A model generated the notes under the pieces. It was not told the origin of the DNA and made no database searches. It saw only the letters and a list, made by a program, of their open reading frames with translations. This document shows, in pieces, positions 3,367 through 45,016 of a stretch of DNA of 64,000 nucleotides. Source of the DNA: an uncultured Candidatus Saccharibacteria bacterium (lineage in GTDB: Bacteria; Patescibacteriota; Minisyncoccia; Phycocordibacterales; UBA9973); NCBI GenBank assembly GCA_964473175.1, contig CAYYNN010000002.1:4563-68562 (forward strand), in the 5' to 3' direction. The stretch's first letter is position 1. Every line of letters starts with the position of its first letter. The translations under genes were made by a program, and so were the position numbers.

Positions 3367-3448
3367 AAAACTAGTATAGCGTAGTATTATTGTGCGACAT
3401 ATACGCACTACTTGCTTTTTATAATATGGTATGGTACTATGTCTATCT

Positions 3449-3709: not shown

Positions 3710-3759
3710 CTTTCATCATGTCCCGCTTCGGCGGGACATTTTGATGTATACTTACATTC

Positions 3760-4269
3760 ATGGCAATCATTAAACAAAAAGATCAACGAGTCGGCATTTT
3801 TATCGACGCACAAAACCTGTACCATACAGCAAAAAATTTATATAAACGAAAAGTAAACTTCTCTAACGTCGTCAAAGACGCTCTTGCTGGACGCAAACTT
3901 ATCAGAGCAATCGCGTACGTGATCACAACAGAGAGCAACGATGAGGGTGCGTTTTTTGACGCTTTAACGAAAAACGGTATTGAAACCAAATCAAAAGACC
4001 TCCAAATATTTTATGACGGTAGCAAGAAAGCTGACTGGGATATTGGACTCGCCATTGACGCAGTGTCTATGGCTCCAAAACTAGACGCAATCGTCATTGT
4101 TTCTGGGGACGGAGACTTTGTACCACTCTGTAACTATTTGAAATACCATCACGGTGTACAAGTAGAAGTTGTCACCTTTGGCAAAAGTGCGTCTGCAAGC
4201 CTCAAAGAGGTTGCCGATGATTTCCTCGATCTTTCAGCTAATGCAAAGAAGTACCTTATCGGCTATTAA
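3760..4269 (+). CDS. NYN-domain (LabA-like, PIN-fold) protein
   Basis: VGIFIDAQNLYH...IVIVSGDGDFVPL motifs typical of NYN/LabA nucleases. Confidence 0.65.
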   Translation: MAIIKQKDQRVGIFIDAQNLYHTAKNLYKRKVNFSNVVKDALAGRKLIRAIAYVITTESNDEGAFFDALTKNGIETKSKDLQIFYDGSKKADWDIGLAIDAVSMAPKLDAIVIVSGDGDFVPLCNYLKYHHGVQVEVVTFGKSASASLKEVADDFLDLSANAKKYLIGY

Positions 4270-11178: not shown

Positions 11179-11538
11179 TTATGACGTACCGGTTCCTGGC
11201 ATTGAATCAAATCGCCCATCACTTGTCACAGTAGTGCATGGATCTCCTGTCATGAGACAATTTCCACCTGGTGTATAGGAACCTAAAAGGTATGTCCCAT
11301 AAATATTATTATTTGAAAAAAGCCTACCACTCCCATCATAGGTCAGTGCGAGTACCCCGCCACCGTTGCCGTAAGTATTAATATAAATAAGCATGTTACC
11401 ACTACAAGTACAGCTCAGTGCAGAAGTTCTCATTCCACCAAAGTAATTGCCTGCAAATACATTGCGTGGATAAAAACCAAATACTGATCCAAGTATTATT
11501 GTCAGCCCGAGTAATAGTTTAGAATATTTTTTAATCAT
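11179..11538 (-). CDS. Hypothetical small secreted Cys/Gly-rich protein
   Basis: Signal peptide MIKKYSKLLLGLTIILGSVFG. 119 aa. Confidence 0.45.
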   Translation of the reverse strand: MIKKYSKLLLGLTIILGSVFGFYPRNVFAGNYFGGMRTSALSCTCSGNMLIYINTYGNGGGVLALTYDGSGRLFSNNNIYGTYLLGSYTPGGNCLMTGDPCTTVTSDGRFDSMPGTGTS

Positions 11539-12302
11539 TGTAATATTTTTTGAATATCAACTTCGATGGGTACTGCATTACTTTCTCCATTTGCATTAGT
11601 AATTTTGAGTATAGCACGTATGTATGTTGTGCCATTCGCATGAGTAACTGTTTCTCCGGTGAGGTTGTTGACAAATGACGAGAGAATAGATGTGTATCTA
11701 CCAGAGTACTTGTACTGCAGTAACTGAGAACGCATTTTTTCTGCAGTTGTAAACGTGAACGGGAATGTAAGAGTTGTTCCATCACTACTTGAATATGAAC
11801 CCACACCTTGAGTTCCATCGCTTACTACAACAACCGTATTATTGAACGCCGTAAAACCTGTCCCTTGTATCGTAATACTCTGAGGACTACTTGTAATGAT
11901 CGCTGGATTAATAGTTGCAATAGAAACGGAAGTTGTAACTGGGGCAACAAGTACCGGAGCAGGAGTGTACTGCCAACTGAGCTTATAGATTAGTGTTCGA
12001 GTAAAGTATCCCACTACCCCAGTCGGGGCACTCAGTCCAGCGGGGACAAGGGCATCAACGGCATATTTAATTTGTAAGCGACTGACTGCTTTGGCGGTAA
12101 GTGCGCCAAAATATGTTGATTCGTTTCCTGGAGAACCTGGACCATTTGTTGCGATACGAGTATCAGGATCGCTATTAAGAAAGACTTGCAACTCTCTAAC
12201 ATCTGCCCCCCGACTACCAATACTGAGCGTACGAGTTATTTCAGCATGCGCAACTGCATAGAAACACAGTATTGCAATCAAGAAAATAGATACATATTTC
12301 AT
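11535..12302 (-). CDS. Secreted protein with putative peptidoglycan-binding (PG_binding_1-like) domain
   Basis: Signal peptide then RGADVRELQVFLNSDP...YFGALTAKAVSRLQIKY resembling the PG-binding domain. Start set at MKYVSIF. Confidence 0.5.
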   Translation of the reverse strand: MKYVSIFLIAILCFYAVAHAEITRTLSIGSRGADVRELQVFLNSDPDTRIATNGPGSPGNESTYFGALTAKAVSRLQIKYAVDALVPAGLSAPTGVVGYFTRTLIYKLSWQYTPAPVLVAPVTTSVSIATINPAIITSSPQSITIQGTGFTAFNNTVVVVSDGTQGVGSYSSSDGTTLTFPFTFTTAEKMRSQLLQYKYSGRYTSILSSFVNNLTGETVTHANGTTYIRAILKITNANGESNAVPIEVDIQKILQ

Positions 12303-12350
12303 ACAAAACAGTATACACCGTACTCCAAACAAACCTGCTACACTCTATTG

Positions 12351-13166: not shown

Positions 13167-14060
13167 ATGGAAGATCATCTCAACCGACCGAGTAAGCAGT
13201 TTCTAAAACGTGGCGCGATAGCTATTGGCATTCTCGCCATTATCCTTGTTGTCCAAACGACATGGTTCCGACATATATTCACCAAGAAAAGCTCAAGCCC
13301 TATCGTTGCATCTACCACTGTGGGAGATTTGGTTACCAAAGATACCAATGGTAACGGCATAGCAGATTGGGAAGAGCGCTTGTGGGGACTTGACCCAACA
13401 GTGCTTTATACCAACGGTGTGTCTAATGAATCCATCATTGCCGGCAAGAAAAAATCACTCGGTGTTGCCAACACGACATCAGATGCCAACCTTGACGATA
13501 CTGACCGTCTCGCGCGGGAACTGTTCACACTTACTGCGGCATTAGGTCAGTCTGATGAAGTTGATAGTGCAACATTGCGAACAATTGCTGCAAAACTCGG
13601 TTCTTCTGTAGATATCAGAGCCGTAAGCAATCAATATTCACTCAAAGATCTCCAAACCGTTCAAACAACTATTGCGAGCCTTACAAAATACCGAACTTCT
13701 ATGCAAGCAGTCATCAAAAAATATGATGTAAACACTCCTGATATAGAAGTATTGGCAACAGCACTGCAAAATGAAGACTATAGTGGCCTCCCTCAACTTA
13801 CTCAAAGTGCCGTTATATACCAGAGACTAGCCAAAGAACTCACTGCAGTACCTACACCGATTGGCCTGGCGACCAACCATCTCAGTATCATCAACGGTTT
13901 TTCTGGTATTGCGACATCATTTACATACATGACAGAACTTGATGACAACTCACTCAAAGCACTTGTCGGAGTCGCAGTGTACAAAAATTATGCTAACAAA
14001 CTTGCGATTGCAACAAGTCAGATGAATGATTATTTGATTCAATACGGTATACTGCAATAA
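13167..14060 (+). CDS. Hypothetical membrane-anchored protein (first gene of T4SS-like island?)
   Basis: N-terminal TM (AIAIGILAIILVV). 297 aa. No motif. Confidence 0.45.
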   Translation: MEDHLNRPSKQFLKRGAIAIGILAIILVVQTTWFRHIFTKKSSSPIVASTTVGDLVTKDTNGNGIADWEERLWGLDPTVLYTNGVSNESIIAGKKKSLGVANTTSDANLDDTDRLARELFTLTAALGQSDEVDSATLRTIAAKLGSSVDIRAVSNQYSLKDLQTVQTTIASLTKYRTSMQAVIKKYDVNTPDIEVLATALQNEDYSGLPQLTQSAVIYQRLAKELTAVPTPIGLATNHLSIINGFSGIATSFTYMTELDDNSLKALVGVAVYKNYANKLAIATSQMNDYLIQYGILQ

Positions 14061-14063
14061 CAC

Positions 14064-16436
14064 ATGAATACGGCGCGCAATATTTTCTTCATAGCACTCA
14101 TACTCCTCTTTATACCGACGGCAACACATGCGGCTCCACTTTGCTCCGATGGAACACCAGCACCTGCAGGGAACATTTGTAACTGCGCTGCAGCATTCAA
14201 TGGAGGAGGGAGTAACTTCACCCCAGGGTCAGGATCAAGTCTTACCGGAAACACCTTTGATGGTAAGACTTTCTCAGGTTTAGGTGGAGCATTAATAAGC
14301 TGCCTTAACATCGGTGGTGCTATTTCCAACCTTTCCTCTAACCTCCAAAATGGAGATGGGTTTAGTTTTAAAGATAATTCAGTACAGCAAATCCCTGTCA
14401 ATGCTTCATCTGTAGAACAAGGTACAACTAAAACCGCGAAGGAAACAGCGGCGACAACAAAACGAGAACAGTGTCTCAACGGTGCAGCATATGCCGCAGC
14501 AAAAACATCTCTCCAAAAACTCTCTGACAAAACACTCAACTGGGTCAAGACCGGTTACAACGGCAATCCACTCTATGTTCGAGATATTGATTCATTTATG
14601 TCATCTATTGCAGGAGAAAAACTAAACACGTATCTCAACCAATACATCGATGCGAGCAATAGTCCTGTATTTGGTAATGCACTTAAGTCAGTCATCAAAA
14701 AACAAGTTACTGGGTGGGATGACGGCTACCTCAACAAGGCTATGAATACACCTGAAGGTAAGGCATATACGGCATTTCAATCTGATTTTACTCAAGGAGG
14801 GTGGGGGGCGTTGTTAAATATGAAGAACAATCCTATCGGAGCATATTTTAATGCAACGGACCAAGTGAGCGGTATTATTGGTACAGCGCAACAAAATACA
14901 CAGAACGAACTCCAACAAGGAAATGGTTTCTTGAGTATGAGAAAGTGCGTCGAGTATGAAGACAAGAGTACAAAAGTAAGTGGTACAAATTCTTCTGGGC
15001 CTGATTGCGGAACATTACAAGACCAAGCACAAGAACAATACGACACATGTATGCAACTTGCCGGAAGTGGTCAAACACAACAGGAGCAATCTGCCAGTGA
15101 ACAAATTTGTCAGATAACCCTTACTGCTGCTCAGTCTCAAATAACGTCATCAACATGTAGTCCTGCAAATGGTACGACACCAGTACTTGCAGGTAGCAAG
15201 GCAAAGTGTCTTAAATACGAAACAGTGACCCCTGGATCTCTGATTGCCAACCAAGTGAACGGTGTTTCAAACTCAACATCACAGATATTGATTAATGCAG
15301 ATAAAATCAACGAGACGATTGGTGTATTCTTTGGGCAGTTGATGGACAGACTCTTTACGGACGGACTCAGCGGTACTGGTAATGGTTCAAGTGGAAATAA
15401 AGCTGATCCGAGTTGGTCACTGGGAAATAACGTAGTGACTGGTACTAATGGGAAAACCCTTGCAAGCGCATCATCCTGCCAAACCCCGTTAGGGTACGAC
15501 CCTTCTACTGGAGGGTTTGACCAAGAGTTTGATATTAGTAGACCCCAGCAATTGAACTCAGTTATTGTGACGCAGAAAAACTTCCTTACTCGTATGCAAG
15601 ACGCACAATTTGTGATGAACAAATTTATTCCTCGTCTCGGAGCATTGGACTACTGTATTCCAGGACCAAACCCAACATACAACAACAACCTCAACGAGAA
15701 CGCACAGGCACTTATTTCTCAATTTCAAACACTCACTGAAACATATAACAATGCAGCGAATACAGCCATTCAAGGGGCTCTTGATCCTGGGCATATATTG
15801 ACGGCTGCAGGGTGTGCTATTTTCCCTCGAAGCTGTGATAACACTCCTCATATTGTTGGATATTCAACTACTCGAGTATCTCTTTTTGACAAAGTGACTG
15901 AGGAACAAAAAAGAATTAGTGATCGTATTTACGGAACCGGTGCATCAGAAGAATTGATGAGGTTTTTTCTTAGTGATGTTGTCGTAGAACTCAAAAGCTT
16001 ATTTGCAACCACATATACCGACACCAACATCATCAACGCATTCGTTAGTACTAGCACCAACCCTGCCCAACAAACATTGATCTCCGGGAAAATAAAAGAG
16101 TCTATTAAAATAACTGCTGACCTTCCTGGATATGCACAAGGAATAGCTGGATATAATGAATACTACTCATCTACTATCGAGAACACACAAGCAGCTTTAA
16201 CTGAACTTGCTGCTATATACAAAGATGTGCAAGATATTGTTGGTCCAGCAAAAGCACGATATATTCTCGACATGCAAAACGCAGGTACTCCCGTCAACCT
16301 CTCTTGTATTGATAACGCCTACCGACTCGGCCCAATAGGTACCGGCGTGGCTCATCTAGAAAACATTACTGCCCCGCTTGACGCATTCCAGTTGCACTCT
16401 GCGGCGTCGAGCGCATATTTCTATAGTCATCTATAA
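14064..16436 (+). CDS. Large secreted Cys-rich protein (hypothetical)
   Basis: Signal peptide MNTARNIFFIALILLFIPTATHA. 790 aa with many Cys. No recognised domain. Confidence 0.55.
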   Translation: MNTARNIFFIALILLFIPTATHAAPLCSDGTPAPAGNICNCAAAFNGGGSNFTPGSGSSLTGNTFDGKTFSGLGGALISCLNIGGAISNLSSNLQNGDGFSFKDNSVQQIPVNASSVEQGTTKTAKETAATTKREQCLNGAAYAAAKTSLQKLSDKTLNWVKTGYNGNPLYVRDIDSFMSSIAGEKLNTYLNQYIDASNSPVFGNALKSVIKKQVTGWDDGYLNKAMNTPEGKAYTAFQSDFTQGGWGALLNMKNNPIGAYFNATDQVSGIIGTAQQNTQNELQQGNGFLSMRKCVEYEDKSTKVSGTNSSGPDCGTLQDQAQEQYDTCMQLAGSGQTQQEQSASEQICQITLTAAQSQITSSTCSPANGTTPVLAGSKAKCLKYETVTPGSLIANQVNGVSNSTSQILINADKINETIGVFFGQLMDRLFTDGLSGTGNGSSGNKADPSWSLGNNVVTGTNGKTLASASSCQTPLGYDPSTGGFDQEFDISRPQQLNSVIVTQKNFLTRMQDAQFVMNKFIPRLGALDYCIPGPNPTYNNNLNENAQALISQFQTLTETYNNAANTAIQGALDPGHILTAAGCAIFPRSCDNTPHIVGYSTTRVSLFDKVTEEQKRISDRIYGTGASEELMRFFLSDVVVELKSLFATTYTDTNIINAFVSTSTNPAQQTLISGKIKESIKITADLPGYAQGIAGYNEYYSSTIENTQAALTELAAIYKDVQDIVGPAKARYILDMQNAGTPVNLSCIDNAYRLGPIGTGVAHLENITAPLDAFQLHSAASSAYFYSHL

Positions 16437-16444
16437 TACATCCT

Positions 16445-17449
16445 ATGAAACGAGCAATTACAATTTTCCTTATCATCCTTGTCGTCGTCGGCATTTTCCT
16501 TACTGGAGCATGGCTGATATCTCGACGTACTGCAGTCAAAAACAGCGCCCCAGCACCAACATTTCGTGACTTCATCACTGGAGACTCAGGAAAAGGTGAC
16601 ACACTTACTCCAAATAACGGCGATCTTTCATCTGTGTTCGTCGATGACAACCTCGGTAACACCGATACTGTTGGTGTCGTCGATACAACTCCAGGAACTC
16701 AAGTTGCACAGTTTACCAATGGAGGCACTTCGCCATCAGGAGGTAGTAGTGGGGCCGGCAATACACAAGGTACGAGCGGGAACGGTATCACCACTACAAC
16801 CTCTCCCAATGGGACTACTACAACGACAACTCCAGGAACAGTTCCAGGAACAGTTATTATTACAACCACAACTCCCAATGGGACTACTACAACGACAACT
16901 ACCAGTATCGATCCGACAACACAACCTCCGTCAACTGCACCTGCTACCACACCTGGTCCCGCATGTGGTGACGCAGATCTCAATATTCAGTTTACTGCGA
17001 ATGAGCTCGCCAAGTTACAGGTACTTCAAAACCGTTTTTATGCTATCGCGCAAAGCCTCCACTCTGATGCAGATGTAGCAACTGAACTAGGTAACCATGA
17101 CAACTTCCTGGCAAAAGTTACCAATACCGAGAGTCTGTACCTGTTTTGCGATCAAATAGTTACAACCCAAGGAGCTGGTGCTATTACGAATCCTGCATAT
17201 AAAAAGCATATTCCAACACCCTTTTGGCATAGTAACGGTATATTGGGTACAGACAATGAACTATTTATCGCAACAGATGGTCCCTATGATGGAACACTTC
17301 GTATAGGAATACCTATGCCGAACGGATTCCCTGGAAACCAAGACCCCGGAGATATAACGACCAATCCGGATGACCTACTGTTTACACCCAACAACGTCAA
17401 GCTTGTCTTGCGGTCACTTGAACGCTCACTCCGATTGAACCTGTGGTAG
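16445..17449 (+). CDS. Membrane-anchored Thr/Gly/Pro-rich repeat protein
   Basis: N-terminal TM, low-complexity SPNGTTTTTTPGTVPG repeats encoded by about 29-bp direct DNA repeats (16802-16900). Confidence 0.5.
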   Translation: MKRAITIFLIILVVVGIFLTGAWLISRRTAVKNSAPAPTFRDFITGDSGKGDTLTPNNGDLSSVFVDDNLGNTDTVGVVDTTPGTQVAQFTNGGTSPSGGSSGAGNTQGTSGNGITTTTSPNGTTTTTTPGTVPGTVIITTTTPNGTTTTTTTSIDPTTQPPSTAPATTPGPACGDADLNIQFTANELAKLQVLQNRFYAIAQSLHSDADVATELGNHDNFLAKVTNTESLYLFCDQIVTTQGAGAITNPAYKKHIPTPFWHSNGILGTDNELFIATDGPYDGTLRIGIPMPNGFPGNQDPGDITTNPDDLLFTPNNVKLVLRSLERSLRLNLW

Positions 17450-17479
17450 TAAATACTATTTGCGTGATACACTGTACAC

Positions 17480-20400
17480 GTGGATTCACTCTCTGTCAGA
17501 CGGTTTATTTTTAGAATAAAAAAAAATCTCTCACGCATCTCCAAGACAGCGCTTTTCGCGTTCGTCTTTTTGATTTTATTGGGTGGAAATATATCTCAGG
17601 TCTTTGCGGATGATGCATTCAATGAATACAAGTATCTTTTCAATACAGCAAATAGCAGCATTCCTATAACAGTAGGTGTTAATACGAACACTTTTGCAAA
17701 AAAATCATGGATGGTTGACGGTCAGAATATTTCAGGGATTTGGATGAAATATTCCTATACCTTTGGAAGTGAGACAGGGGATAAAAACGCTGAATACACA
17801 TGGGACCATATTGACGCATTAAATGGTAGTGAAATTTTTATCGTGAGATCTTGTGATACGGGAACAACAGATAACTGCATTTATAGCAAAATTCCATATA
17901 CACAATATGGATATGGAACCGATACCAATATCATATTTCGAGCAAGAGCTAGTGCATACTTTGCAAATCAAACCGTTGATATTAAAGCATCACAATGGGT
18001 AACATCTAGTGATAGTTCTATTGTTCCAGATTTTCTCACAAAACCAGCTCAAAGCGTTAGTATTTGGTATTGTGCATCAAAACCAAACCATGCTGTTATC
18101 GCAGGTGGAGATGATCGCCCTGAACCAAAAGATGCTGCTGACTCAGCAAATGATCCAGCAATTCAGAAATTTGGAAGTCTCTGTGATGGAAGAACATATT
18201 TTAAGATCAACCAAGTAGATGGGCTAAAACCTGTGTCTGCTCAGATAGAATCACAGACACAAGCTACTACAACAAATGAGGCAAGTGGTGGTGCTGGGGG
18301 TGCAAAGGCCGAAGGAGAAGGGAACGACCTACCTTCATGTAGTTTTACGGGAGGAATCTTTAGCGCAGGTAGTTTCATGGGGTGTATTGCTCGAGTCGTG
18401 TATTACGTTGTGTATTGGCCTATTGCGTGGTTTGCGAGTTTAATGGGCAACTTGTTTGACTTCTTCTTGTCTTATTCGCTTTCCGACAGCTCGTACCGTG
18501 CTGAGTTTGCTATCAGAGGGTGGCAGATAGTGCGAGATATATCCAACATCTTCTTTATTGTTATCCTGGTTTGGACCGGCTTATCGACAGTGTTCAACAC
18601 AGGGACAAACATGAAGAAAGTAGTGCCAAACCTTATTTTGAATGCACTACTCATCAACTTCTCACTCTTTGGAACGAGAGTGATCATCGATATATCCAAC
18701 ATCGTCGCTCGTGTCTTTTATAATACGATGCAGGTCTGTGAGGGGAAGTGTGTGGATGCCAACAACGATGGAGTACAGGACAACCCAGCCATTGGTGCCG
18801 GTAAGTCAAAAGCTCTTTCCCAAAAAATAGTTTCTGCATTCAATCCGCAAAAAATATTTGACACTAGTGTAATTGACTCACAAAGAGCTGTTAAAAACGT
18901 TACTCAATCAAAGATTGCTGACAGTGACAGTGAGGTTGCTGGGTATTATATCGTGGTGACCATCATTGCTGCGGCTATTCTTTTTGGTATTGCAATGATG
19001 TTTTGGAGAGTGGCATTTTTCTTCTTGGGAAGAGTTATTGGTCTGTATGTGGCCATGATATTTGCGCCATTCGCATTCCTGGGACGAGGAGGTCTTCCGT
19101 TGGTGAGTGGTATCAAAGAACTGTCGTGGGATAGTTGGCTTTCAGACTTGACCAAATATGCATTGTTAGCACCTATTTTTGTATTCTTTTTATATATTAT
19201 TTATTCATTCCTTGAAACAAATTTCATCACCGTATATACAGGTGTGGTAGGGAATACTTTCTTTGAAACAGTTATCTATATCGCAGTGCCGATGTTGATC
19301 GTCTATTTCATGGTCAAACAAGGGGTTACCATTGCGGAGAATTATGCGGGGAAAATCGGAAAGCAGGTGCAGGAAGGCGCAATGAAGGTTATAGGGTCAG
19401 GTGTCGGTCTCGCAGCGGGCACAGCAGCATTTGCTGGAAGAAATATTATTGGACGAGGTCTTGGTGCTATAGGTAAACAAAAAGTTTCGTATACAGATAA
19501 GGATGGAAAAGAGATCGAAACAACTCGGGCTGCACAATGGGCAGCTAATTCAAACAACAGTTTCTTTGCAAGGAGATGGAACAACACCTACAGTGCATCT
19601 CAGACTGGGTCATGGGATGCTCGAAATGTAAATGTCGCAGGAAAATCCGCTGAAGATAGGCTTTTCAAAGGCCTTGGCCTTAGTGACAATATTAGCGGGA
19701 AGCTCGGAATTGGCAAAGAAAAAGCACTCGGGAAAGATGGTAAGGCAGGAGGTAATGTCATGATTAATAAAAAACGTGATGAAGAAAAACAGAAAGAAAT
19801 AGAAAGTAGAATCCAGACAGCCCATCTATCAGATGAGGATGCTAAGGCGGCGGGCGAGCGCTATAAGAATGAAAAAATTAAGGCATTTGCGGATCAGCAT
19901 TGGACAGAACATGTTGATGTCGATGATATCGCACTAAATTCTAAAGCATATCGTGACCTTAAGACAAAAGAAGAACAAATACAAAAAGATTTAGTTGCTG
20001 CTAAGGCTGCTAATCTACCTGGGGCAACGGCAATACATGAACAAAGTCTTGCAGACAATAAGACTGCACAGGCTCAAACATTGCAGAAGGAAAAAGATAC
20101 AGCAAAAGATACAAAAGAAAAAGACCAAGCTGCATTTCAACAACTCAAGCTTCAGGCAGTTGACCAGATCACAAAAGACAATAAGCGAAATGAGAGCGAA
20201 GCTTTTAAAGATACAGTCAAAGAAGAAAGAGATCGTTTGGATAAGTATGGAAAAATTAAAGACAATAAAAGCTTTACGAACATGATGAGAGCCGAATATG
20301 TTGAAGACTTACAAAATGGATCCTTCTGGGGGGAATTTACAAAATCTGGTTTCGGTTCTGCTGTTAGTAAAACTGCAATTGGATCTATTCTCGGAACACT

Positions 20401-20938
20401 AATACCTGTACTTGCGCCAGCAGTAGGGACTTTATTAGGGGGAGTATTTGCAAAAGAATTAGCAGACGATCTTATAGACAATGCTACAGGATCTAGATCT
20501 CGTGCAATAAAAGCAATCATAAAAAAGGCAACGGCTGCTCCAGGAACTGGAAACACACTAGTCGATCTCGAAGCTCGACTTCAAAAACACAAAGACTCTG
20601 CAGTGGACGCAATCAACGAATCACTTAAGACTGCTTACGACTCATACGACAAAATTTTACCAGCAGAGTCTAAAAGGGGGATATTAAAAAGGATTGCGAT
20701 GCTTGATGAAGATATAGAAAATTTTACAGAAGAGATTAAGACTTTAACAGGTGATAAAAAGATTGAGGCCAGATACAATAAAGCCAAGGCTGAGGATGAG
20801 CGTACAAATCTTCGAAATATTGAAGAAAAACTTGCCCGTGCACAAAAAGATCTTGATGAGAAAAAAGACCGTGAGAATGACAAAGAAGAGAGGAAGAAAG
20901 AATCAAATAAGCCTAAAACTAAAGAGCCTAGTAAATAA
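17480..20938 (+). CDS. Polytopic membrane protein, VirB6/TrbL-like, with long C-terminal K/E-rich coiled-coil tail
   Basis: Signal/TM, extracytoplasmic domain, then at least 6 TM helices in the pattern of TrbL/VirB6 proteins, then about 450 aa charged coiled coil. 1152 aa. Confidence 0.45.
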   Translation: MDSLSVRRFIFRIKKNLSRISKTALFAFVFLILLGGNISQVFADDAFNEYKYLFNTANSSIPITVGVNTNTFAKKSWMVDGQNISGIWMKYSYTFGSETGDKNAEYTWDHIDALNGSEIFIVRSCDTGTTDNCIYSKIPYTQYGYGTDTNIIFRARASAYFANQTVDIKASQWVTSSDSSIVPDFLTKPAQSVSIWYCASKPNHAVIAGGDDRPEPKDAADSANDPAIQKFGSLCDGRTYFKINQVDGLKPVSAQIESQTQATTTNEASGGAGGAKAEGEGNDLPSCSFTGGIFSAGSFMGCIARVVYYVVYWPIAWFASLMGNLFDFFLSYSLSDSSYRAEFAIRGWQIVRDISNIFFIVILVWTGLSTVFNTGTNMKKVVPNLILNALLINFSLFGTRVIIDISNIVARVFYNTMQVCEGKCVDANNDGVQDNPAIGAGKSKALSQKIVSAFNPQKIFDTSVIDSQRAVKNVTQSKIADSDSEVAGYYIVVTIIAAAILFGIAMMFWRVAFFFLGRVIGLYVAMIFAPFAFLGRGGLPLVSGIKELSWDSWLSDLTKYALLAPIFVFFLYIIYSFLETNFITVYTGVVGNTFFETVIYIAVPMLIVYFMVKQGVTIAENYAGKIGKQVQEGAMKVIGSGVGLAAGTAAFAGRNIIGRGLGAIGKQKVSYTDKDGKEIETTRAAQWAANSNNSFFARRWNNTYSASQTGSWDARNVNVAGKSAEDRLFKGLGLSDNISGKLGIGKEKALGKDGKAGGNVMINKKRDEEKQKEIESRIQTAHLSDEDAKAAGERYKNEKIKAFADQHWTEHVDVDDIALNSKAYRDLKTKEEQIQKDLVAAKAANLPGATAIHEQSLADNKTAQAQTLQKEKDTAKDTKEKDQAAFQQLKLQAVDQITKDNKRNESEAFKDTVKEERDRLDKYGKIKDNKSFTNMMRAEYVEDLQNGSFWGEFTKSGFGSAVSKTAIGSILGTLIPVLAPAVGTLLGGVFAKELADDLIDNATGSRSRAIKAIIKKATAAPGTGNTLVDLEARLQKHKDSAVDAINESLKTAYDSYDKILPAESKRGILKRIAMLDEDIENFTEEIKTLTGDKKIEARYNKAKAEDERTNLRNIEEKLARAQKDLDEKKDRENDKEERKKESNKPKTKEPSK

Positions 20939-20940
20939 TT

Positions 20941-21471
20941 ATGACAGATCAAAACAACACAAAACAAGAAGAGGATTTTGATAAAGCACTTATTGAAGTG
21001 CCTGAAGAAGTCAGGGAATTTATGTGGAGTGATGCATATACTTACATACTCGATGTAGCACAGAAAGCACTTTCATTAACTGATTCGGAAAAAGCAGCGA
21101 TGAGGGTCACTTCTTACAATCTACTATTGCGTATTACTGATATGGAAACGGAGAGTAAAAATATGCTTTCCTCAGAAATAGATCCGGAGAAAATAACAAA
21201 GATACTTTATACAATTCATACTCAAATATTAACTGCTGCAAAAAATATTATGAAATATGATCAATATATTGACGATGAGATTGCATCAAATGAGGGAGCA
21301 ACCGCCCCAACTCCATCCGACATGCTTGCACGTCTCAACCAAACCTTCATAAAGCCGACAACGCTAAGCTCTACCAAGCGCGATCTCAGTAATGAGGGTA
21401 TTAAAAGTATCGATACCGTCCCAAAAAGCTCATCATCTATAGACCCCTATAGAGAACTTCCTGATAAATAA
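20941..21471 (+). CDS. Hypothetical acidic cytoplasmic protein (T4SS-like island)
   Basis: 176-aa ORF tightly packed in island (3-nt gap from upstream gene). Confidence 0.45.
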   Translation: MTDQNNTKQEEDFDKALIEVPEEVREFMWSDAYTYILDVAQKALSLTDSEKAAMRVTSYNLLLRITDMETESKNMLSSEIDPEKITKILYTIHTQILTAAKNIMKYDQYIDDEIASNEGATAPTPSDMLARLNQTFIKPTTLSSTKRDLSNEGIKSIDTVPKSSSSIDPYRELPDK

Positions 21472-21506
21472 AAGGGTAATGAAAAAATAACTGCTATACT
21501 TTACTC

Positions 21507-21911
21507 ATGCAGTTCAAGGTTCCACAATTCATCGACATTGAAGACAAAGTATTTGGACCATTTACGTTCCGGCAGTTCGTATACCTCGCTGGTGGGGCAG
21601 GGTTGGTATACCTCTCACTAAAACTACTTCCACTTCTCATTGCATTGATATTCGTTCCGATATTTGGAGGACTCGCACTTGCGCTCACTTTTTTCAAATA
21701 CAACGACAAGCCTTTTATCAATGTCCTAGAATCCTTCATACGGTTTTATTCACGATCTCGTCTCTACCTCTGGCACAAAAAAGAAACCAAAGCGTCGAGC
21801 AAGATAGTACCCGAAGCAAGAGTCAGTGCAGAGCGTGCTACACTGACGGAGAGTAAGCTCAAGACACTTTCATGGAGTCTTGATGTGATTGACCCCAATA
21901 ATAGTAAATAG
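21507..21911 (+). CDS. PrgI/VirB3-like small membrane protein
   Basis: FGPFTFRQFVYLAGGAGLVYL two-TM hairpin typical of PrgI-family proteins that precede VirB4 in Gram-positive-type T4SS. Confidence 0.5.
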   Translation: MQFKVPQFIDIEDKVFGPFTFRQFVYLAGGAGLVYLSLKLLPLLIALIFVPIFGGLALALTFFKYNDKPFINVLESFIRFYSRSRLYLWHKKETKASSKIVPEARVSAERATLTESKLKTLSWSLDVIDPNNSK

Positions 21912-21928
21912 AACAAACAGTCTCAACC

Positions 21929-22564
21929 ATGGCTACCATCGGCACACCCGCTCAACAATTCGTTCCAGTCAAAGAAGTACGCGACGGCATCATCGTTATG
22001 AAAGACGGTTCCCTCGCTATGGCAATACTTGTTTCATCGGTTAACTTGTCGCTCAAAAGCTTTGATGAACAGCGTGCAACGTTGATGCAGTTTCAAAACT
22101 TCCTCAATACACTGGATTTCCCGATACAAATAGTTATTCAGTCTCGTCGATATGACATTCGACCCTACATTTTGACCCTGCAAAACCGCCTCAAGGAGCA
22201 AACAGAGTCGCTCTTGCAGGTGCAAACACGCGAATACATTCAGTTCATCCAAAGTTTTACTGACCAAGTCAACATCATGCGCAAAAACTTCTTTGTGGTT
22301 ATTCCATACATTCCGCCGATCCTCAACCAACAAAGCGGTATCGGCAAGATCTTTTCATTTTTAAACAAAACAAATACTGCGACACAGTCCGTGATCGAGT
22401 TTGAGCAACAGCGTACACAACTTGAAGAAAGAGTTAACGTGGTTGAGCAAGGGCTTTCTCGTGTCGGTCTTCGTGTTGCACAACTTGGAACTGAAGAGGT
22501 GATTGAGTTGCTCTACAAAACATTTAACCCAGGAGAAAGTACGTCACAAGCAAAAGCACAATAA
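21929..22564 (+). CDS. VirB4/TrbE N-terminal domain fragment (split gene, part 1)
   Basis: KEVRDGIIVMKDGSLAMAILVSSVNLSL...FPIQIVIQSRR resembles the start of CagE_TrbE_VirB N-domain. Same frame as the next ORF, separated by TAA...TAG. Confidence 0.5.
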   Translation: MATIGTPAQQFVPVKEVRDGIIVMKDGSLAMAILVSSVNLSLKSFDEQRATLMQFQNFLNTLDFPIQIVIQSRRYDIRPYILTLQNRLKEQTESLLQVQTREYIQFIQSFTDQVNIMRKNFFVVIPYIPPILNQQSGIGKIFSFLNKTNTATQSVIEFEQQRTQLEERVNVVEQGLSRVGLRVAQLGTEEVIELLYKTFNPGESTSQAKAQ

Positions 22565-22606
22565 TACTCACACCAAATGATAATAGTATTGTATACTGCG
22601 TAGGCA

Positions 22607-24421
22607 ATGGCACTCTTTGGTTCAAACAAAAAAAAGGAAGACAAGCTGTTACCGATCGCACCGTCACAAGTGTATGAATGGGCAACAATGGAGCTCGCTG
22701 ATAAAATAGCGCCTTCAGCTATCGAAATCACTCCGAAGTCGATGCGTATCGGCGACAAGATCATCCGAACTTTTTTCGTTATTTCATATCCGAGATTTCT
22801 CACTGACAACTGGCTGACTCCTATCATCAACCTGGACAAGATTTTTGATGTTGCTATTTACGTCAACCCTATTGAAACAGCAGAACTGTTGAAGCACTTC
22901 CAAAAAAAGATCGCTGAAGTTGAGAGTCAAATCATCGTCAGACAACAAAAAGGTGTTGTTCGTGATCCGATGCTCGATACTGCATACCAAGACCTTGAAG
23001 AACTTCGTGACAACCTCACCCAAGCGCAGGACAAAATGTTCAATATTGGCTTCTATATCTCTATCTATGCCGATAACGAGAACGATCTCTTTCGAACTGA
23101 AAGTGAGATCAAAAGTATGCTTGAGAGCAAGATGATCTATATCAAACCTGCTCTTTTCCAAGAAGAGGATGGGTTCAAAACAGTAACACCTCTAGGTACT
23201 GACAAACTCGGTATTACCCAAAAGCTAAACTCTGAACCGATATCATCGATGTTTCCGTTCGTGTCTTTTGATCTGACAGGGGATACTGGGATTTTGTATG
23301 GGGTTAACCGCCACAACTCTTCTCTGGTTATCTTTGACCGGTTTTCTCTCGAGAACTACAACTCCATCATTTTTGCCAAGTCTGGTGCCGGCAAATCATA
23401 TGCGACAAAGCTCGAGATTATCCGTACACTCATGTTTGATACAGATGTGATTGTTATTGACCCAGAACGAGAGTATGAATATTTGGCGGAAGCAATCGGA
23501 GGCAGGTATTTCAATATTTCACTTTCGTCTGACAACCACATCAACCCCTTTGATTTGCCTATACCTCGAGTTGATGAGTCACCTGCAGATGTACTTCGCT
23601 CCAACATCATTAACCTCGTTGGACTATTTCGTATTATGCTTGGAGGACTTTCTCCAGAAGAAGACTCTATTGTTGACCGCGCGATCACTGAAACATATTC
23701 ACTCAAAGATATTACGCCTGAAAGCGACTTCACTTCTATCGAACCCCCACTTCTTTCTGACTTTGAAATGGTCCTTTCGGGAATGGAGGGGACAGAATCG
23801 GTATTGCAGCGTCTCACCAAATACACTCATGGCTCATGGGCAACATTCATCAACCAACCAACGAACGTAGATATCAACAAGAAATTCGTTGTGTTCTCAG
23901 TGCGAGATATGGAGGATGATCTCAAACCAGCTGCAATGTACATTGTGACGCACTTTATATGGAATGCGGTTCGCAAAGAGCTCAAGAAACGGTTGCTCGT
24001 CGTCGATGAGGCGTGGTGGATGATGAAATCAGATGATACTGCATCATTCTTGTACTCTATTGCAAAGCGAGGGCGTAAATACTATCTCGGGCTGTGTACC
24101 ATCACGCAAGACGTGGGGGACTTCATGAAGAGTCCGTATGGTGTCCCTATCGTGACCAACTCATCTATTCAACTCTTGCTCAAGCAGTCTCCGTCTACTA
24201 TGGACGTCCTCCAGAAGACGTTCAACCTTACTGACGAAGAAAAATTTCTCCTTTTAGAAAGTGGTGTAGGGGAGGGTATATTCTTTGCGGGACTCAAACA
24301 CGTCGCAATCAAGATTATTGCAAGTTATACCGAAGATCAGATCATTACTTCTGACCCGTCACAGGTTATTTCTATTCGTAGTGCAAAAAAAGAATTTAGT
24401 GAACAAAATAAACGTTCATAG
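22607..24421 (+). CDS. VirB4/TrbE/CagE-family T4SS ATPase (split gene, part 2)
   Basis: N-domain continuation (ITPKSMRIGDKIIRTFFVISYPRFLTDNWLTPII), Walker A IIFAKSGAGKSY, Walker B LLVVDEAWWMM. 604 aa. Confidence 0.8.
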   Translation: MALFGSNKKKEDKLLPIAPSQVYEWATMELADKIAPSAIEITPKSMRIGDKIIRTFFVISYPRFLTDNWLTPIINLDKIFDVAIYVNPIETAELLKHFQKKIAEVESQIIVRQQKGVVRDPMLDTAYQDLEELRDNLTQAQDKMFNIGFYISIYADNENDLFRTESEIKSMLESKMIYIKPALFQEEDGFKTVTPLGTDKLGITQKLNSEPISSMFPFVSFDLTGDTGILYGVNRHNSSLVIFDRFSLENYNSIIFAKSGAGKSYATKLEIIRTLMFDTDVIVIDPEREYEYLAEAIGGRYFNISLSSDNHINPFDLPIPRVDESPADVLRSNIINLVGLFRIMLGGLSPEEDSIVDRAITETYSLKDITPESDFTSIEPPLLSDFEMVLSGMEGTESVLQRLTKYTHGSWATFINQPTNVDINKKFVVFSVRDMEDDLKPAAMYIVTHFIWNAVRKELKKRLLVVDEAWWMMKSDDTASFLYSIAKRGRKYYLGLCTITQDVGDFMKSPYGVPIVTNSSIQLLLKQSPSTMDVLQKTFNLTDEEKFLLLESGVGEGIFFAGLKHVAIKIIASYTEDQIITSDPSQVISIRSAKKEFSEQNKRS

Positions 24422-24437
24422 TGCTATACTAGTACCT

Positions 24438-25385
24438 ATGAAACGTGTATTCACGCTCTTGTTTCTTATAGTCATATTCTCGAGTGCACCATATACTGGC
24501 GCGCAAAGTATTACCGATGATATTTCGGTTGATATTATTCCACTTAACCCGGCCCCCGGTGCAATAGTGACACTCCGAGCAAACAGTTACAGTATGGACT
24601 TGAGTCAAGCAAGCCTCTCATGGACCTACAACAACGTTAGCATTGGTAAAGGAACAGGTAAAACAACGGTTAGTATTGTTGCTCCCGCAAGTGGCGCCAC
24701 TGGAGTTATTTCTGTTAGTGCGTCTGGCTCAGGAAGCACAGCGTCTACGAGTATTGTTTTGAGACCAGGAAGTGTTGATGTCCTCTGGGAAGCGGTAGAT
24801 GCATATACTCCTCCGTTTTATAAAGGCAAAGCACTCCTACCGGTCAACGGGTTGATCCGCTATGTCGCAATGCCGGCAACATCTGCACCCAAAACACTGA
24901 CATATACATGGTCACGCAACAGTTCTGTATTACCTGATGAATCTGGTTATAACAAATCAAGTCTTCTCATCAAGCATAGTGAGTTCAACCCTGTAGAAAG
25001 TGTCACTGTTGCGATTTCTGGTGGATCATATGCTGGTAACAGCACTATCAATGTCCGACCCATAACATCTCCAAGTATTGTGGCGTATCAAAACAGGGAA
25101 GGGTTTGTCGACTACACTACAGGGTACAGTAGTGTGATTCCATTTACCCAGAGTGGTATGGTGCTTCACTTTGAACCATACTATTTCTCTATTGCGCGCA
25201 CGCTGCTCAGTGATCTTTCTTATGATCTCACTATTGATGGACAGTCAGTCAGTCCATCAAAACCAAATGAAGTTGGTCTTTCTCGACCGTCTAGGCCCGG
25301 ACAAAGTACCATCAACCTCGCGATAACAACCACTGCGTACAGCTTGCAACATGCAGAAAAAGCCCTTACCCTCAATTTCAATTAA
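24438..25385 (+). CDS. Hypothetical secreted protein (T4SS-like island)
   Basis: Signal peptide MKRVFTLLFLIVIFSSAPYTGAQS. Start trimmed from the longer ORF. Confidence 0.5.
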   Translation: MKRVFTLLFLIVIFSSAPYTGAQSITDDISVDIIPLNPAPGAIVTLRANSYSMDLSQASLSWTYNNVSIGKGTGKTTVSIVAPASGATGVISVSASGSGSTASTSIVLRPGSVDVLWEAVDAYTPPFYKGKALLPVNGLIRYVAMPATSAPKTLTYTWSRNSSVLPDESGYNKSSLLIKHSEFNPVESVTVAISGGSYAGNSTINVRPITSPSIVAYQNREGFVDYTTGYSSVIPFTQSGMVLHFEPYYFSIARTLLSDLSYDLTIDGQSVSPSKPNEVGLSRPSRPGQSTINLAITTTAYSLQHAEKALTLNFN

Positions 25386-25386
25386 T

Positions 25387-27228
25387 ATGACTACCGTTTT
25401 AAAATCATTTTTTTTCATACTTTTCTTTACACTTTTGGTCATACCAGTATCCAAAACATTTGCCGCACCACCATACCCATTTACCGCAACCATAAATGGT
25501 AACAGTATCGTTGCAAAAATGACCAATGCTCCTGCTGATGCGACACAATATCGCCTCTACAACGGAAACACTCCTGTCGCATCCAACGACCTTGTTGGTC
25601 CGGATACGAGTATCCAAACACAAACAAATGGTATCGTTACTTGGACTATTAGTGGTCTTGGGTTTGTAAACGGTGTTTACACCTTGCATGTTGAAAAAGT
25701 CCCGGCAGTTGGACAAATTACCGTATTTGGCGGCACCAACATTGTAACCGCCGATGTATCAGTCACCGTCAACACAAGTACTACAGACTTTTTCCTCTGG
25801 CCCATGAACGCGGTCAGTGCAACAGGACAAGGTATTGTCTTGGCAGGTAAAATAGATACATCACAATACCCTGCGACGAATGGTCTACAGGTTAAAATAC
25901 AGTATTCAACATCCGCTAACCCTTCAGGAGGTACAGAGTTGGTTGCCCACAGCACACTTGGGTCAGGTAGTACCGAAGGGGTGGCATCAGATGGGTCATA
26001 CTATTTTGAACTGAACTCACTGACACCAAAAACAAAGTATTACTATCGTCAAACTATCACTGCTACAGCAACCAACACGGTGCTGAGCACCAAAGACCTC
26101 TATTTCAATAGTACCGATGGGTATGTTCCCTCAGGGACTCTCCAGCAAGAAGAAGTGGAGGCAGATCGTACATATCATCTCCTTGCTCCATGGCCAGGAC
26201 TTTCCAAACTCTATGACCCAGCACTCTGTCAGGAGAAAAAAGATGCGGGAGAAATTCCAGTGAATTCTGTGTGTGACGTGAACGGCTTCATCAACTTTGC
26301 ATTCAAAACATTGATCGGACTCACTGCGGTTGTGCTTGTCCTCCGATTGATGTTTGAAGGCTACCAATACATGGTCACTGATGTCCCATTTCTCAAAGCA
26401 TCCGCAAAGGGGAGCTTCTTTTCTGCATTGATGGGCTTGTTGCTTGCACTCGGGTCATATGTGATTCTCAATACCGTGAACCCAAAGTTGGTGGATAACA
26501 AGTTTAATATTGCGGGAGTGAATGTGGGGGTTGAATTTACAGAATTTGATGCAGCAACATTCCAATCTGTTTCAGGTAGGCCTATAAAAGCAAAAGCTGA
26601 GTTACTTGCTATAGTAAAATCGACTGCTCAATCAAAAAATATTGATTCTTGCATCGTTCAAGCAATCATTCAACATGAAAGTCAGTGGAAAGAAAATGCT
26701 GTTGGGTGTGACGAAAATGTGAAAAGTAACGGAGTTCCATCCCGAACTGCATTTGTACAATCTGGAGTTACACTATCGGGAACTACTTTTACTCCAACCT
26801 CTGCCACTTCTTCAGTCACAAATGATAGCCTGGTTCCTGGTAAAAAATGTTATTTTGATGAAACTAAGCCAGGATTTAATTTAGACTGGAGATTTTCAAA
26901 AGGATTTGGTTTAGGGCAAACTACAATTTTCCCTTCAAACTACAATGAATCAAGTTGGTTTACTGATGTTAAACAAGGGGGTGTACTTTGGAACAATCGC
27001 TCTACTGTCCCTACTGCAAAAATTAAAGATCTCTTGCAAAATCCTGCTACTCAAGTTAATGCAATAATTACTATATATAAAAACAACGCAAGTACCTGCT
27101 TGACTGATATACAAAAATCTTTTGCTGCATATAACGGGGGAAGTTGCGGTACTACAAATGCTAATGCGTTAGCATATGGACGAAGTGTAAAGGCGACATA
27201 TGATCTCTGTAAGCAAAACGGTGGTTAA
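25387..27228 (+). CDS. Secreted/membrane protein with C-terminal lytic transglycosylase (SLT, VirB1-like) domain
   Basis: Signal peptide, beta-rich N domain, two-TM hairpin (LIGLTAVVLVLRLMFEGY...LLLALGSYVILN), C-terminal AIIQHESQWKENAVG ... GFGLGQ ... AAYNGG resembling the SLT ES/GLMQ/AYNAG motifs. Confidence 0.55.
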   Translation: MTTVLKSFFFILFFTLLVIPVSKTFAAPPYPFTATINGNSIVAKMTNAPADATQYRLYNGNTPVASNDLVGPDTSIQTQTNGIVTWTISGLGFVNGVYTLHVEKVPAVGQITVFGGTNIVTADVSVTVNTSTTDFFLWPMNAVSATGQGIVLAGKIDTSQYPATNGLQVKIQYSTSANPSGGTELVAHSTLGSGSTEGVASDGSYYFELNSLTPKTKYYYRQTITATATNTVLSTKDLYFNSTDGYVPSGTLQQEEVEADRTYHLLAPWPGLSKLYDPALCQEKKDAGEIPVNSVCDVNGFINFAFKTLIGLTAVVLVLRLMFEGYQYMVTDVPFLKASAKGSFFSALMGLLLALGSYVILNTVNPKLVDNKFNIAGVNVGVEFTEFDAATFQSVSGRPIKAKAELLAIVKSTAQSKNIDSCIVQAIIQHESQWKENAVGCDENVKSNGVPSRTAFVQSGVTLSGTTFTPTSATSSVTNDSLVPGKKCYFDETKPGFNLDWRFSKGFGLGQTTIFPSNYNESSWFTDVKQGGVLWNNRSTVPTAKIKDLLQNPATQVNAIITIYKNNASTCLTDIQKSFAAYNGGSCGTTNANALAYGRSVKATYDLCKQNGG

Positions 27229-27247
27229 ACTGTAGTACAATACACAT

Positions 27248-28513
27248 ATGCGAAAGTTGCTCATCATTATTTTATCTCTCATCGTGCTTTCAGGAGTTGG
27301 GTGGTACATATACGCCAAGATGCACCAGACTGCTCCAGGTGTACCATCTATCACTGATTTCACTTCCTTCTTTCCTACGGGTGATCAGACGAACCCTGGA
27401 GGTGTACCAGGTATCCTGCCAGGACTTCCTTCGACATCCACTACTGCAGAGATAGCGACGTCGAACTCTCCATTCAAACAGATCAGTCCAAACCCCGTAG
27501 CAGGTTTTACTATTTTTGACCGAAGCATCACTGTCGTAACGCCAGCTGATCCTACAGTACCCAAATCAAAACCAACACCACAAACCGTTCTCAAACATTT
27601 GTTGCGCTATGTCTCACGTACAAACGGCTATGTGTATGAAATAGAAGACGGCTCTATTCCACTACAAATCTCAAACGTCTATATTCCAAATATCTATGAA
27701 GCAGTGTTTGGCGACAAATATGAAACAGCAGTCCTTCGCTTCCTCAGAACAGACCAGCGCACGATTGCAACCTATGCGGTTCCTATTCCATCACCCAACC
27801 CTGACGGTACACGCACACAAAAGCCAGGGACATACTTGCCCGACAACCTTATCGCAGCGGTGTCCGCACCGGATGACAGCCAGGTGGCACGCATCATGAT
27901 CGACAAGAATGGATCACTTCTTTCAACATCAGCGACCGTCACTGGCAAAAAATCCGATATCCTATCAAACACTTTTAGAGAGTGGATATTGTCGTGGCCA
28001 AATGCCAAAAGTCTCTATCTCCAAACAAAAGCAAGTGCACAAGTGCCAGGGTATTTGTATCGAGTCGACACCAGTGACAAGAAACTACAAAAAGTACTTG
28101 GGGGTATTACTGGTCTAACAGCATCAGTGAGTCCATCAGGAACATATGTCTTGTATTCTCAAAGTACTGATACAGGATTTGTGACAAAACTATTTAATAC
28201 AAAAACCAACACCACAAAAGGTATCAGCTTGAACATTCTTCCCGAGAAATGTGCTTGGCTTAAAAATGAAGACCTCGTATGTGCAGGTAATACCGCCATA
28301 CCTAACGCAATATACCCCGATGCGTGGTACCAGGGAACAGTGGCATTTTCAGATCAGTTGTATCGTATTTATACAGGCTCTCTTATTTTTGATACTTTGT
28401 ATGACAATACCAGTCGGTCATACGATATGACATCGCTCATGGTTAATGAATCCACCAACACGGTGTATTTCATAGACAAACCAACGGGTTTACTCTGGCA
28501 GTTTTCTTATTAA
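27248..28513 (+). CDS. Hypothetical membrane-anchored secreted protein
   Basis: N-terminal TM/signal MRKLLIIILSLIVLSGVGWYIYA. 421 aa. Confidence 0.5.
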   Translation: MRKLLIIILSLIVLSGVGWYIYAKMHQTAPGVPSITDFTSFFPTGDQTNPGGVPGILPGLPSTSTTAEIATSNSPFKQISPNPVAGFTIFDRSITVVTPADPTVPKSKPTPQTVLKHLLRYVSRTNGYVYEIEDGSIPLQISNVYIPNIYEAVFGDKYETAVLRFLRTDQRTIATYAVPIPSPNPDGTRTQKPGTYLPDNLIAAVSAPDDSQVARIMIDKNGSLLSTSATVTGKKSDILSNTFREWILSWPNAKSLYLQTKASAQVPGYLYRVDTSDKKLQKVLGGITGLTASVSPSGTYVLYSQSTDTGFVTKLFNTKTNTTKGISLNILPEKCAWLKNEDLVCAGNTAIPNAIYPDAWYQGTVAFSDQLYRIYTGSLIFDTLYDNTSRSYDMTSLMVNESTNTVYFIDKPTGLLWQFSY

Positions 28514-35664: not shown

Positions 35665-36543
35665 TTACTTATTAATTTTTAGTAATTCAACAACTTCATC
35701 CTCGTTCTTACACGCGTATAGTTTCTGTATTAATTCTCGCTCATGCTTATCTTCTGTAGTTTTCAACACTTCTTCCATATGGAATGTCTCAATCGCATGT
35801 AGTGCAAAACCAACCGCACCACCAACTGGTGCAAATGTTTCTTCACCGATTTGTGGCATATGTTCTGCAAAGTAGTCCAAACATTCCTTCCATTGTTCGA
35901 GGGATGTGTAGGTGGTGGGAATAAAGTGTATGTGACCATCATCGATGGTGACGGTGGTACCAAACTTTTCTTTGAGGCCTTGGGTCAATGACTCGGGTAC
36001 GACTACGGCATCTCGTAAATGGAAGAATTGAGTTCCAGCAAATTCATCGCAGAAACCCGACTCAGTAGTCTGGTACCCCTTGCGTCGTAGTGTCAATACA
36101 GCATCTCGTGTTTGTGACTCAATTTGTTCTATGTAACATCCCAACAATAGCTCTTGTGCTGTCGGCATCGGAGATACCTCTTTGCGGCGCTCGAGGTCGG
36201 GGTGGCCGTATCCTCGAACGCGCTGATAGTCCACCATGCTTTTTAGGTTATCTACCGACAGCGGTTCTATTGTTTCAAGTGAACGATTTGCATTGCCAGT
36301 ATAGTAGTGAAATGTTCCACCGATTATTTTCTCAAATTCTGAATCATTAAGTGATGTCAAAAATGCTGTACCGTCGGCATTAAGTGCAGCAGGGAAGTTC
36401 TTTTCAAACATTTCAATATTTCGGAGGTTGTCAGTTGTATCATTGGGACGTTGTTCTAAATGAGTACGAGCGGTATCAATCAATACTTTCAATCGCTCCT
36501 CAAACGATGGCTGCTGCTCGGGGGTAAGTGAGAGTTGTTCCAT
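35665..36543 (-). CDS. Hypothetical cytoplasmic protein (orphan)
   Basis: 292-aa ORF, no motif. Locally somewhat more GC-rich than its neighbours (by eye). Confidence 0.45.
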   Translation of the reverse strand: MEQLSLTPEQQPSFEERLKVLIDTARTHLEQRPNDTTDNLRNIEMFEKNFPAALNADGTAFLTSLNDSEFEKIIGGTFHYYTGNANRSLETIEPLSVDNLKSMVDYQRVRGYGHPDLERRKEVSPMPTAQELLLGCYIEQIESQTRDAVLTLRRKGYQTTESGFCDEFAGTQFFHLRDAVVVPESLTQGLKEKFGTTVTIDDGHIHFIPTTYTSLEQWKECLDYFAEHMPQIGEETFAPVGGAVGFALHAIETFHMEEVLKTTEDKHERELIQKLYACKNEDEVVELLKINK

Positions 36544-36607
36544 AACCTCAGTATACCATTGCGCTATATAGTAAAAGTGGCCTTCATAAAATGAAGGCCA
36601 CTGTGTT

Positions 36608-44921: not shown

Positions 44922-45016
44922 TGTATATATAGTATAGCGTATAACCCTGGAGATACCCCTACTATAAGCTTAAAAACAGCTCCTTTTCGACACATATTTG
45001 GTCTATAGGGAAGTAG

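Follow-up and report, generated by a model that had tools for sequence, protein, structure and literature searches.

The question raised by this locus is whether a VirB4-type ATPase of a type IV secretion system (T4SS), which appears to be interrupted by two in-frame stop codons, is one gene that is decaying or read through, or whether it is two genes. The locus lies in a 64,000-nucleotide (nt) stretch of contig CAYYNN010000002.1 (GenBank assembly GCA_964473175.1), to which, at its full length, we refer as the window. The first-pass annotation of this DNA had described two open reading frames (ORFs) in the same frame, ORF1 and ORF2, separated by 42 nt that contain TAA at 22562 and TAG at 22601 with 12 sense codons between them. 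We confirmed these coordinates: the starts of ORF1 and ORF2 are congruent modulo 3, which places both ORFs in one shared reading frame, and between them follow, in order, 12 sense codons, the TAG, a GCA codon and the ATG of ORF2. The features in question are the following:

21929..22564, + strand: ORF1, TrsD-like stand-alone protein of 211 amino acids (aa), with ATG at 21929 and TAA at 22562-22564.
22565..22606, + strand: intergenic spacer between ORF1 and ORF2, 42 nt, which happens to be in frame; the second stop codon, TAG, is at 22601-22603.
22590..22597, + strand: extended -10-like box TGTATACT, 9 nt before the ORF2 ATG; putative promoter of a (near-)leaderless ORF2 mRNA.
22607..24421, + strand: ORF2, VirB4-type ATPase of 604 aa, with ATG at 22607 and stop codon at 24419-24421.
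23375..23398, + strand: Walker A motif (P-loop) AKSGAGKS of ORF2, read from the translation; G, G, K and S do not vary across a 53-sequence alignment.

Three options had been offered for this arrangement: a genuine two-polypeptide VirB4, recent pseudogenization, and regulated readthrough. The first of them held up and the other two did not. ORF1 and ORF2 are two distinct cistrons, each under selection, whose products together span the VirB4 fold. We are highly confident that both are genuine genes, translated independently, of a monoderm-style T4SS locus in a Patescibacteria genome of the Paceibacteria/Nomurabacteria type, and that they encode a TrsD-like protein (ORF1) and the remainder of VirB4 (ORF2), which would reassociate as a VirB4 protomer.

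ORF1 is the first part (approximately 200 residues) of the VirB4 N-terminal domain, as had been supposed. It matched the NCBIfam profiles VirB4_plasma (positions 105–285 of 894, 3.7e-14), CD1110 (positions 2–118 of 752) and TrbE (positions 53–206). Residues 19–124 also aligned to positions 26–141 of 201 of the TrsD/TraD family NF041427 (E 7.8e-6), a likeness that is one of remote homology only. The Pfam scan of ORF1, performed on a copy of the database that probably lacked the PF26593 model, returned no family; PF26593 (PF26593.2) is, however, precomputed on P0001, a protein 100% identical to ORF1, and on all of the 120 best homologues. A search of the ORF1 sequence against the PDB gave no match (best E 1.1), and the link to TrwK was obtained by fold search only. 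When the AlphaFold2 (AF2) model of ORF1 (45-sequence alignment; predicted local distance difference test (pLDDT) 84.8) was compared with the PDB by Foldseek, all 14 matches at E≤0.001 were TrwK/VirB4 of plasmid R388, with probability 1.0 and a query template modeling (TM) score of 0.50–0.62. Homologues of ORF1 number at least 7,973 in a collection of 5.8 billion proteins. The best 120 of these are all stand-alone proteins of 207 to 219 aa with 75% to 100% identity, from metagenome-assembled genomes (MAGs) of Paceibacteria, Nomurabacteria and Minisyncoccia. Among the best 150 representatives at 50% clustering, 148 are short and stand-alone and 2 are fused (797 and 898 aa). A sizeable minority of the stand-alone relatives are 300 to 443 aa long with the homologous part at the N-terminus, and thus carry a C-terminal extension (for example P0131, P0141, P0143, P0170, and P0217).

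ORF2 is the second part of the VirB4 N-terminal domain followed by the RecA-like C-terminal ATPase domain. Its Pfam matches are P-loop_TraG (1.1e-24, 87.4 bits against a cut-off of 25.8), AAA_10 and DUF87, and it matched the NCBIfam profiles conju_CD1110 (5.4e-111, 372.1 bits against a cut-off of 325, positions 183–733 of 752) and VirB4_plasma (positions 292–893 of 894). The first profile position matched was 251 of 800 for TraC and 287 of 792 for VirB4_CagE. Residues 226–582 matched the crystallized C-terminal domain of Thermoanaerobacter VirB4 (PDB 4AG5) at 4e-41, and the D, E, A and W of the Walker B-type motif LLVVDEAWW are invariant. ORF2 thus carries a P-loop with Walker A and Walker B above curated thresholds, and it does not hold a complete N-terminal domain and ATPase in one chain of approximately 750 to 900 aa. 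Judging by the profile positions covered, the missing N-terminal part is supplied by ORF1.

The 2 proteins are collinear with single-chain VirB4. In both the VirB4_plasma and the CD1110 profiles they occupy adjacent, non-overlapping segments, and the 815-aa concatenation of ORF1 and ORF2 aligned end to end with the single-chain homologue P0265 (797 aa), over 810 aa at 47% identity and with a 17-aa gap at the junction. The GAGKS core of Walker A, at residues 260–264 of ORF2, comes to lie at residues 471–475 of the concatenation. A model of the concatenation built from the 53-sequence alignment had a pLDDT of 78, with junction residues 217–238 below 50, and superimposed on the full-length TrwK protomer over approximately 840 columns (E 2e-28, TM score 0.59–0.60). 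The break sits in a variable, disordered linker, after residue ~205 of the N-terminal domain. The order of secondary-structure elements in the ORF1 model is similar to that in the N-terminal part of ORF2, and for this reason an internal duplication, in which the two would be homologous half-domains, was checked by hhalign of both family alignments; the probability obtained was 0.65% over 7 columns, and the duplication was rejected as having no support from sequence.

The same split, which the first-pass annotation had proposed to look for in related genomes, is general among them. We compared 80 loci from different GTDB species of Paceibacteria/Nomurabacteria relatives, found with 11 closer sequences, 78 of which hold both parts on the contig. 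In all 78 loci the orthologues of ORF1 and ORF2 are separate, the former with its own stop codon and the latter usually of 595 to 617 aa. The start of ORF2 and an M-x-L/I-F N-terminus are kept in every orthologue printed. ORF2 is 86% to 97% identical to orthologues from species in which ORF1 is 72% to 89% identical. Relative to the closest relatives, the nonsynonymous divergence (dN) was 0.08–0.19 for ORF1 and 0.04–0.10 for ORF2, with synonymous divergence (dS) saturated (above 1.7 or undefined); the resulting dN/dS of about 0.05 or less indicates purifying selection on both genes. A shared frame was found in 20 of the 78 pairs, against a chance expectation of approximately one third. The in-frame relation in the window is therefore no more than chance, and the in-frame double stop, on which the first-pass annotation had placed its stress, is a coincidence of this genome in which neither the shared frame nor the second stop has a function. 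Among the closest genomes, many bear the deposited name 'uncultured Candidatus Saccharibacteria', and others with the same near-identical genes are labeled Nomurabacteria, Paceibacteria or Minisyncoccia; for that MAG series the name Saccharibacteria seems unreliable.

To follow how the 2 genes may be expressed, the gene upstream of ORF1 has to be included:

21507..21911, + strand: PrgI family (VirB3-like) small membrane protein of 134 aa, directly 5' of ORF1.

A TATACT hexamer is present at 21495-21500, 6 nt before the prgI ATG, and ORF1, 17 nt 3' of prgI, has no -10-like box of its own; ORF1 is probably co-transcribed with prgI. Within the spacer, a TG(n)TATACT box 6 to 10 nt before the ORF2 ATG is conserved in the clade of the window, and 62 of 79 spacers have a TAnA[ACT]T box 5' of the ORF2 ATG; in 46 of these the box is at 6 to 10 nt, mainly in closer relatives. 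Throughout the window, the arrangement TATACT-N5-11-ATG occurs 14 times against 4.2 expected, several of these at gene starts, and none of the 56 putative genes has a Shine-Dalgarno-like motif. This suggests that ORF2 may have its own promoter and a leaderless mRNA, and that this Paceibacteria-type genome may rely mostly on leaderless mRNAs and on initiation independent of a Shine-Dalgarno sequence.

A -10-like box (TATACT, TACAAT or TATAAT, often preceded by TG) that ends 6 to 10 nt before the ATG is found at many genes of the window, for example, from box to ATG, at 3747-3762, 14048-14066, 21495-21509, 22592-22609, 24425-24440, 36541-36555 (- strand) and 44919-44936 (- strand). Three entries of the ORF list, 24285-25385, 11535-12332 (- strand) and 2452-3618 (- strand), begin at upstream TTG codons. 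The position of the box suggests that the true genes there are shorter and start from the ATG at 24438, 12302 and 3366, respectively. With the start at 24438, the apparent overlap with the 3' end of ORF2 (24285-24421) disappears.

In the mechanism that we propose, the ORF1 and ORF2 chains would associate non-covalently and rebuild a canonical VirB4 protomer. This protomer would dock on PrgI/VirB3 at the membrane, as TrwK does on TrwM in R388 (structures 7O41 and 8RTB), and the docked protomer would power assembly and secretion. ORF1 would be transcribed with prgI, and ORF2 from its own -10-like box as a separate leaderless transcript. Several observations weigh against this view. The association of the 2 chains is something that we infer, and because the concatenation was modeled as one chain, from an alignment that included fused homologues, the model is no proof that separate chains bind. 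The score of ORF1 on NF041427 is 25.8 bits, far under the curated TrsD cut-off of 200, and the TrsD-related passages of Quinonero-Coronel et al. (2025, Microb Genom, PMC12102498) state that TrsD has so far been given no function. Distant relatives lack the -10-like box, and their spacers measure 1 to 11 nt. Moreover, a two-hexamer sigma-70 scan called no promoter in the spacer, where there is no -35 element, and no terminator was found after ORF1; for this reason the ORF2 promoter is one that we infer.

Some of these observations would also be compatible with ORF1 being a diverged paralogue of the VirB4 N-terminal domain with a role of its own, for instance as a PrgI-bound adaptor or regulator, and with ORF2 being an N-terminally short VirB4. 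ORF1 is seemingly transcribed with prgI whereas a separate -10-like box precedes ORF2, extra sequence at the C-terminus takes many stand-alone relatives to 300 to 440 aa, and 608 of the 2,272 TrsD homologues of Patescibacteria reported in the TrsD-related passages of PMC12102498 are not beside virB4, notably those of Gracilibacteria. However, PF26593 is common to the ORF1 family and to the N-terminus of the fused proteins, and the two align collinearly. ORF1 and ORF2 are also adjacent in all 78 loci, and the model of both parts fits the entire TrwK protomer. We consider a separate role of ORF1 improbable, and retain the two-gene VirB4.

Programmed stop readthrough or recoding, whether regulated or constitutive, would produce a fused VirB4 of approximately 830 aa in which the spacer is translated as YSHQMIIVLYTA. 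The in-frame arrangement of this genome is what speaks for it, but it would require readthrough at two unlike stop codons, TAA as well as TAG, and the related loci do not preserve such a site. Spacer length across the 78 loci varies between -71 and +434 nt, with a median of 26.5, so that some pairs overlap (-71 and -4 nt) and others lie 100 to 434 nt apart. In-frame pairs have 1 to 6 in-frame stops between ORF1 and ORF2, and the three stop codons TAA, TAG and TGA are all used as ends of ORF1 orthologues. In the locus with the 434-nt spacer, from a related Paceibacterota MAG (L031), a whole gene is inserted between the orthologues (L031:4679-5017), which encodes a 112-aa 23S_rRNA_IVP protein (PF05635, 3.6e-35). 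The conservation of frame relation and stop context that marks a recoding site was not found among the orthologues, and none of the 5 tRNAs of the window identified by ARAGORN is a suppressor. The random frame relation, the spacers from overlap to 434 nt and the inserted gene exclude regulated readthrough, and we give readthrough of any kind very little credence.

Recent pseudogenization, in which nonsense mutations would have hit a single virB4 that is now decaying, could draw on the shared frame, on the short distance of 42 nt between the ORFs and on the existence of fused relatives. It is at odds with the split in 78 of 78 related species, in thousands of homologues and in other phyla (described below), with dN of 0.04 to 0.19 while dS is saturated, with the conserved start and N-terminus of ORF2, and with a spacer that holds a conserved box and not decayed coding sequence. 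The occurrence of the split in all these species and in other phyla, together with the low dN/dS at saturated dS, excludes it. That a sequencing or assembly error put the stops into a single gene has no specific point in its favor beyond the source being probably a MAG, and is next to impossible given the same two-gene structure in independent assemblies of 78 species and an identical 211-aa protein that has two separate sources on record (P0001 and P0002).

The two-gene form of VirB4 extends well beyond these relatives. A tblastn search of ORF1 against plasmids returned the order PrgI, small 'TraC family' or hypothetical protein, and DUF87/VirB4 ATPase in Pontibacillus, Clostridium botulinum pCBG, C. 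perfringens pJFP838A, Miltoncostaea (Actinomycetota) and the haloarchaeon Haloprofundus pMHR1-2. These plasmid triplets of Bacillota, Actinomycetota and haloarchaea agree with the window locus in the order of the three genes and in the position of the split, and their small proteins are 22% to 29% identical to ORF1 over 87% to 100% of its length. They differ from it in that the small proteins are longer (257 to 349 aa), adjacent genes in many cases share 11 nt or abut, and the systems are plasmid-borne. Conversely, a search with the fused protein P0265 found about 118 proteins of 775 to 807 aa, named Candidatus Colwellbacteria or Parcubacteria, with PF26593 at the N-terminus. Patescibacteria therefore hold both split and fused VirB4 architectures. 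Single-chain VirB4 proteins, namely TrwK of R388, the CD1110 family, VirB4 of Mycoplasma integrative and conjugative elements and the fused Colwellbacteria proteins, have the same fold and domain order with conserved Walker A and B motifs, but are one polypeptide, whereas the VirB4 of the window is in two parts with separate start codons. The fission is old and is common to the whole clade and to T4SSs of Bacillota, Actinomycetota and haloarchaea, while the sister lineage Colwellbacteria keeps a single chain. Within the fused Colwellbacteria clade, P0289 and P0385 (approximately 600 aa, 88% and 77% identical to P0265) cover 75% of the query, the ATPase part only, without PF26593; they are probably split forms, which hints at repeated fission. 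In another fused protein, P0218 (898 aa), a long Pro/Ala-rich linker is located exactly at the split position.

It is conceivable, although we think it unlikely, that the fission is itself functional. PrgI and TrsD would in that case form a membrane platform, transcribed as one unit, on which the ATPase, produced from its own leaderless promoter, would dock reversibly at another stoichiometry or time. If this were true, the linker, as a site at which VirB4 has been split and joined repeatedly, would be a natural hinge in the inner-membrane complex of the T4SS. The repetition is read from the split Nomurabacteria/Paceibacteria-type clades, the fused Colwellbacteria with P0289 and P0385, and the split forms of Bacillota, Actinomycetota and haloarchaea.

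A stand-alone protein of approximately 200 aa 5' of a VirB4-like ATPase, as in the window, is also found in the TrsD/TraD and TrsE/TraE systems of the staphylococcal and enterococcal plasmids pGO1/pSK41 and pIP501 (MPF_FATA). Those systems belong to conjugative plasmids and their TrsD/TraD is only remotely similar to ORF1, whereas the Patescibacteria system is chromosomal. In Patescibacteria, the two-gene arrangement of TrsD and VirB4 is already known. The TrsD-related passages of PMC12102498 describe TrsD as remotely homologous to the VirB4 N-terminus and as the commonest T4SS component of Patescibacteria, usually beside virB4, with 1,664 of the 2,272 homologues associated with VirB4, and report that the TrsD homologue of Ca. 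S. epibionticum ML1 is essential. The name TrsD refers there to the CONJScan/MPF_FATA profile, and of that usage the window shows the adjacency to virB4. Since TrsD and VirB4 are described there, the pair in the window is an instance of a published arrangement; gene order and homology are the same, in a monoderm-type locus with prgI/virB3, and we see no essential difference. The present analysis adds only a little to it, namely statistics on frame and spacer, a sister clade with fused VirB4, and a probable promoter of a leaderless transcript within the spacer. The TrsD-related passages of PMC12102498 make no mention of the fused clade, of such statistics or of the -10-like box. The main text of Guglielmini 2014 does not name TrsD, and our search found no useful literature on TrsD with TrsE, on PF26593 or on leaderless transcripts in Patescibacteria. 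Wang et al. (2023, PMC10633639) showed that Ca. Southlakia epibionticum ML1 needs its T4SS in order to grow epibiotically and that the system is similar to the conjugative systems of Gram-positive bacteria. The chromosomal T4SS of Patescibacteria is not considered a classical conjugation apparatus (PMC10633639). The essentiality in the one strain tested makes the system of real interest (PMC10633639). The importance of the split itself goes little beyond correct annotation. The pair should not be flagged as a frameshifted or pseudogenized virB4, and ORF1 should be labeled as a TrsD-like VirB4 N-terminal module. For structural biology, the natural split in the VirB4 N-terminal domain offers a ready-made domain boundary.

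PrgI scored above the gathering threshold of its Pfam family (4.8e-10, 40.3 bits against a cut-off of 27), has two transmembrane-like hydrophobic segments (residues 27–64) and lies beside virB4, as expected of a PrgI/VirB3-like protein. Two further members of the gene string are:

17480..20938, + strand: large polytopic membrane protein of up to 1152 aa with nine transmembrane-like segments, in the same gene string.
25351..27228, + strand: 625-aa protein with a weak SLT (lytic transglycosylase) match (Pfam SLT, 1.2e-5).

The first of these has no Pfam or NCBIfam match and is a candidate VirB6-like channel subunit. In the second, the SLT match (25.3 bits against a cut-off of 21.3) covers residues 423–452 and makes the protein a candidate VirB1-like cell-wall hydrolase. 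Apart from this weak SLT match, the genes flanking prgI, ORF1 and ORF2 (13167-21471 and 24438-28513) gave no Pfam or NCBIfam match. Most of their products begin with a signal-peptide or transmembrane-like segment, and they are probably divergent T4SS envelope components (VirB6-, VirB8- or VirB1-like proteins, or pilins) as described for Patescibacteria.

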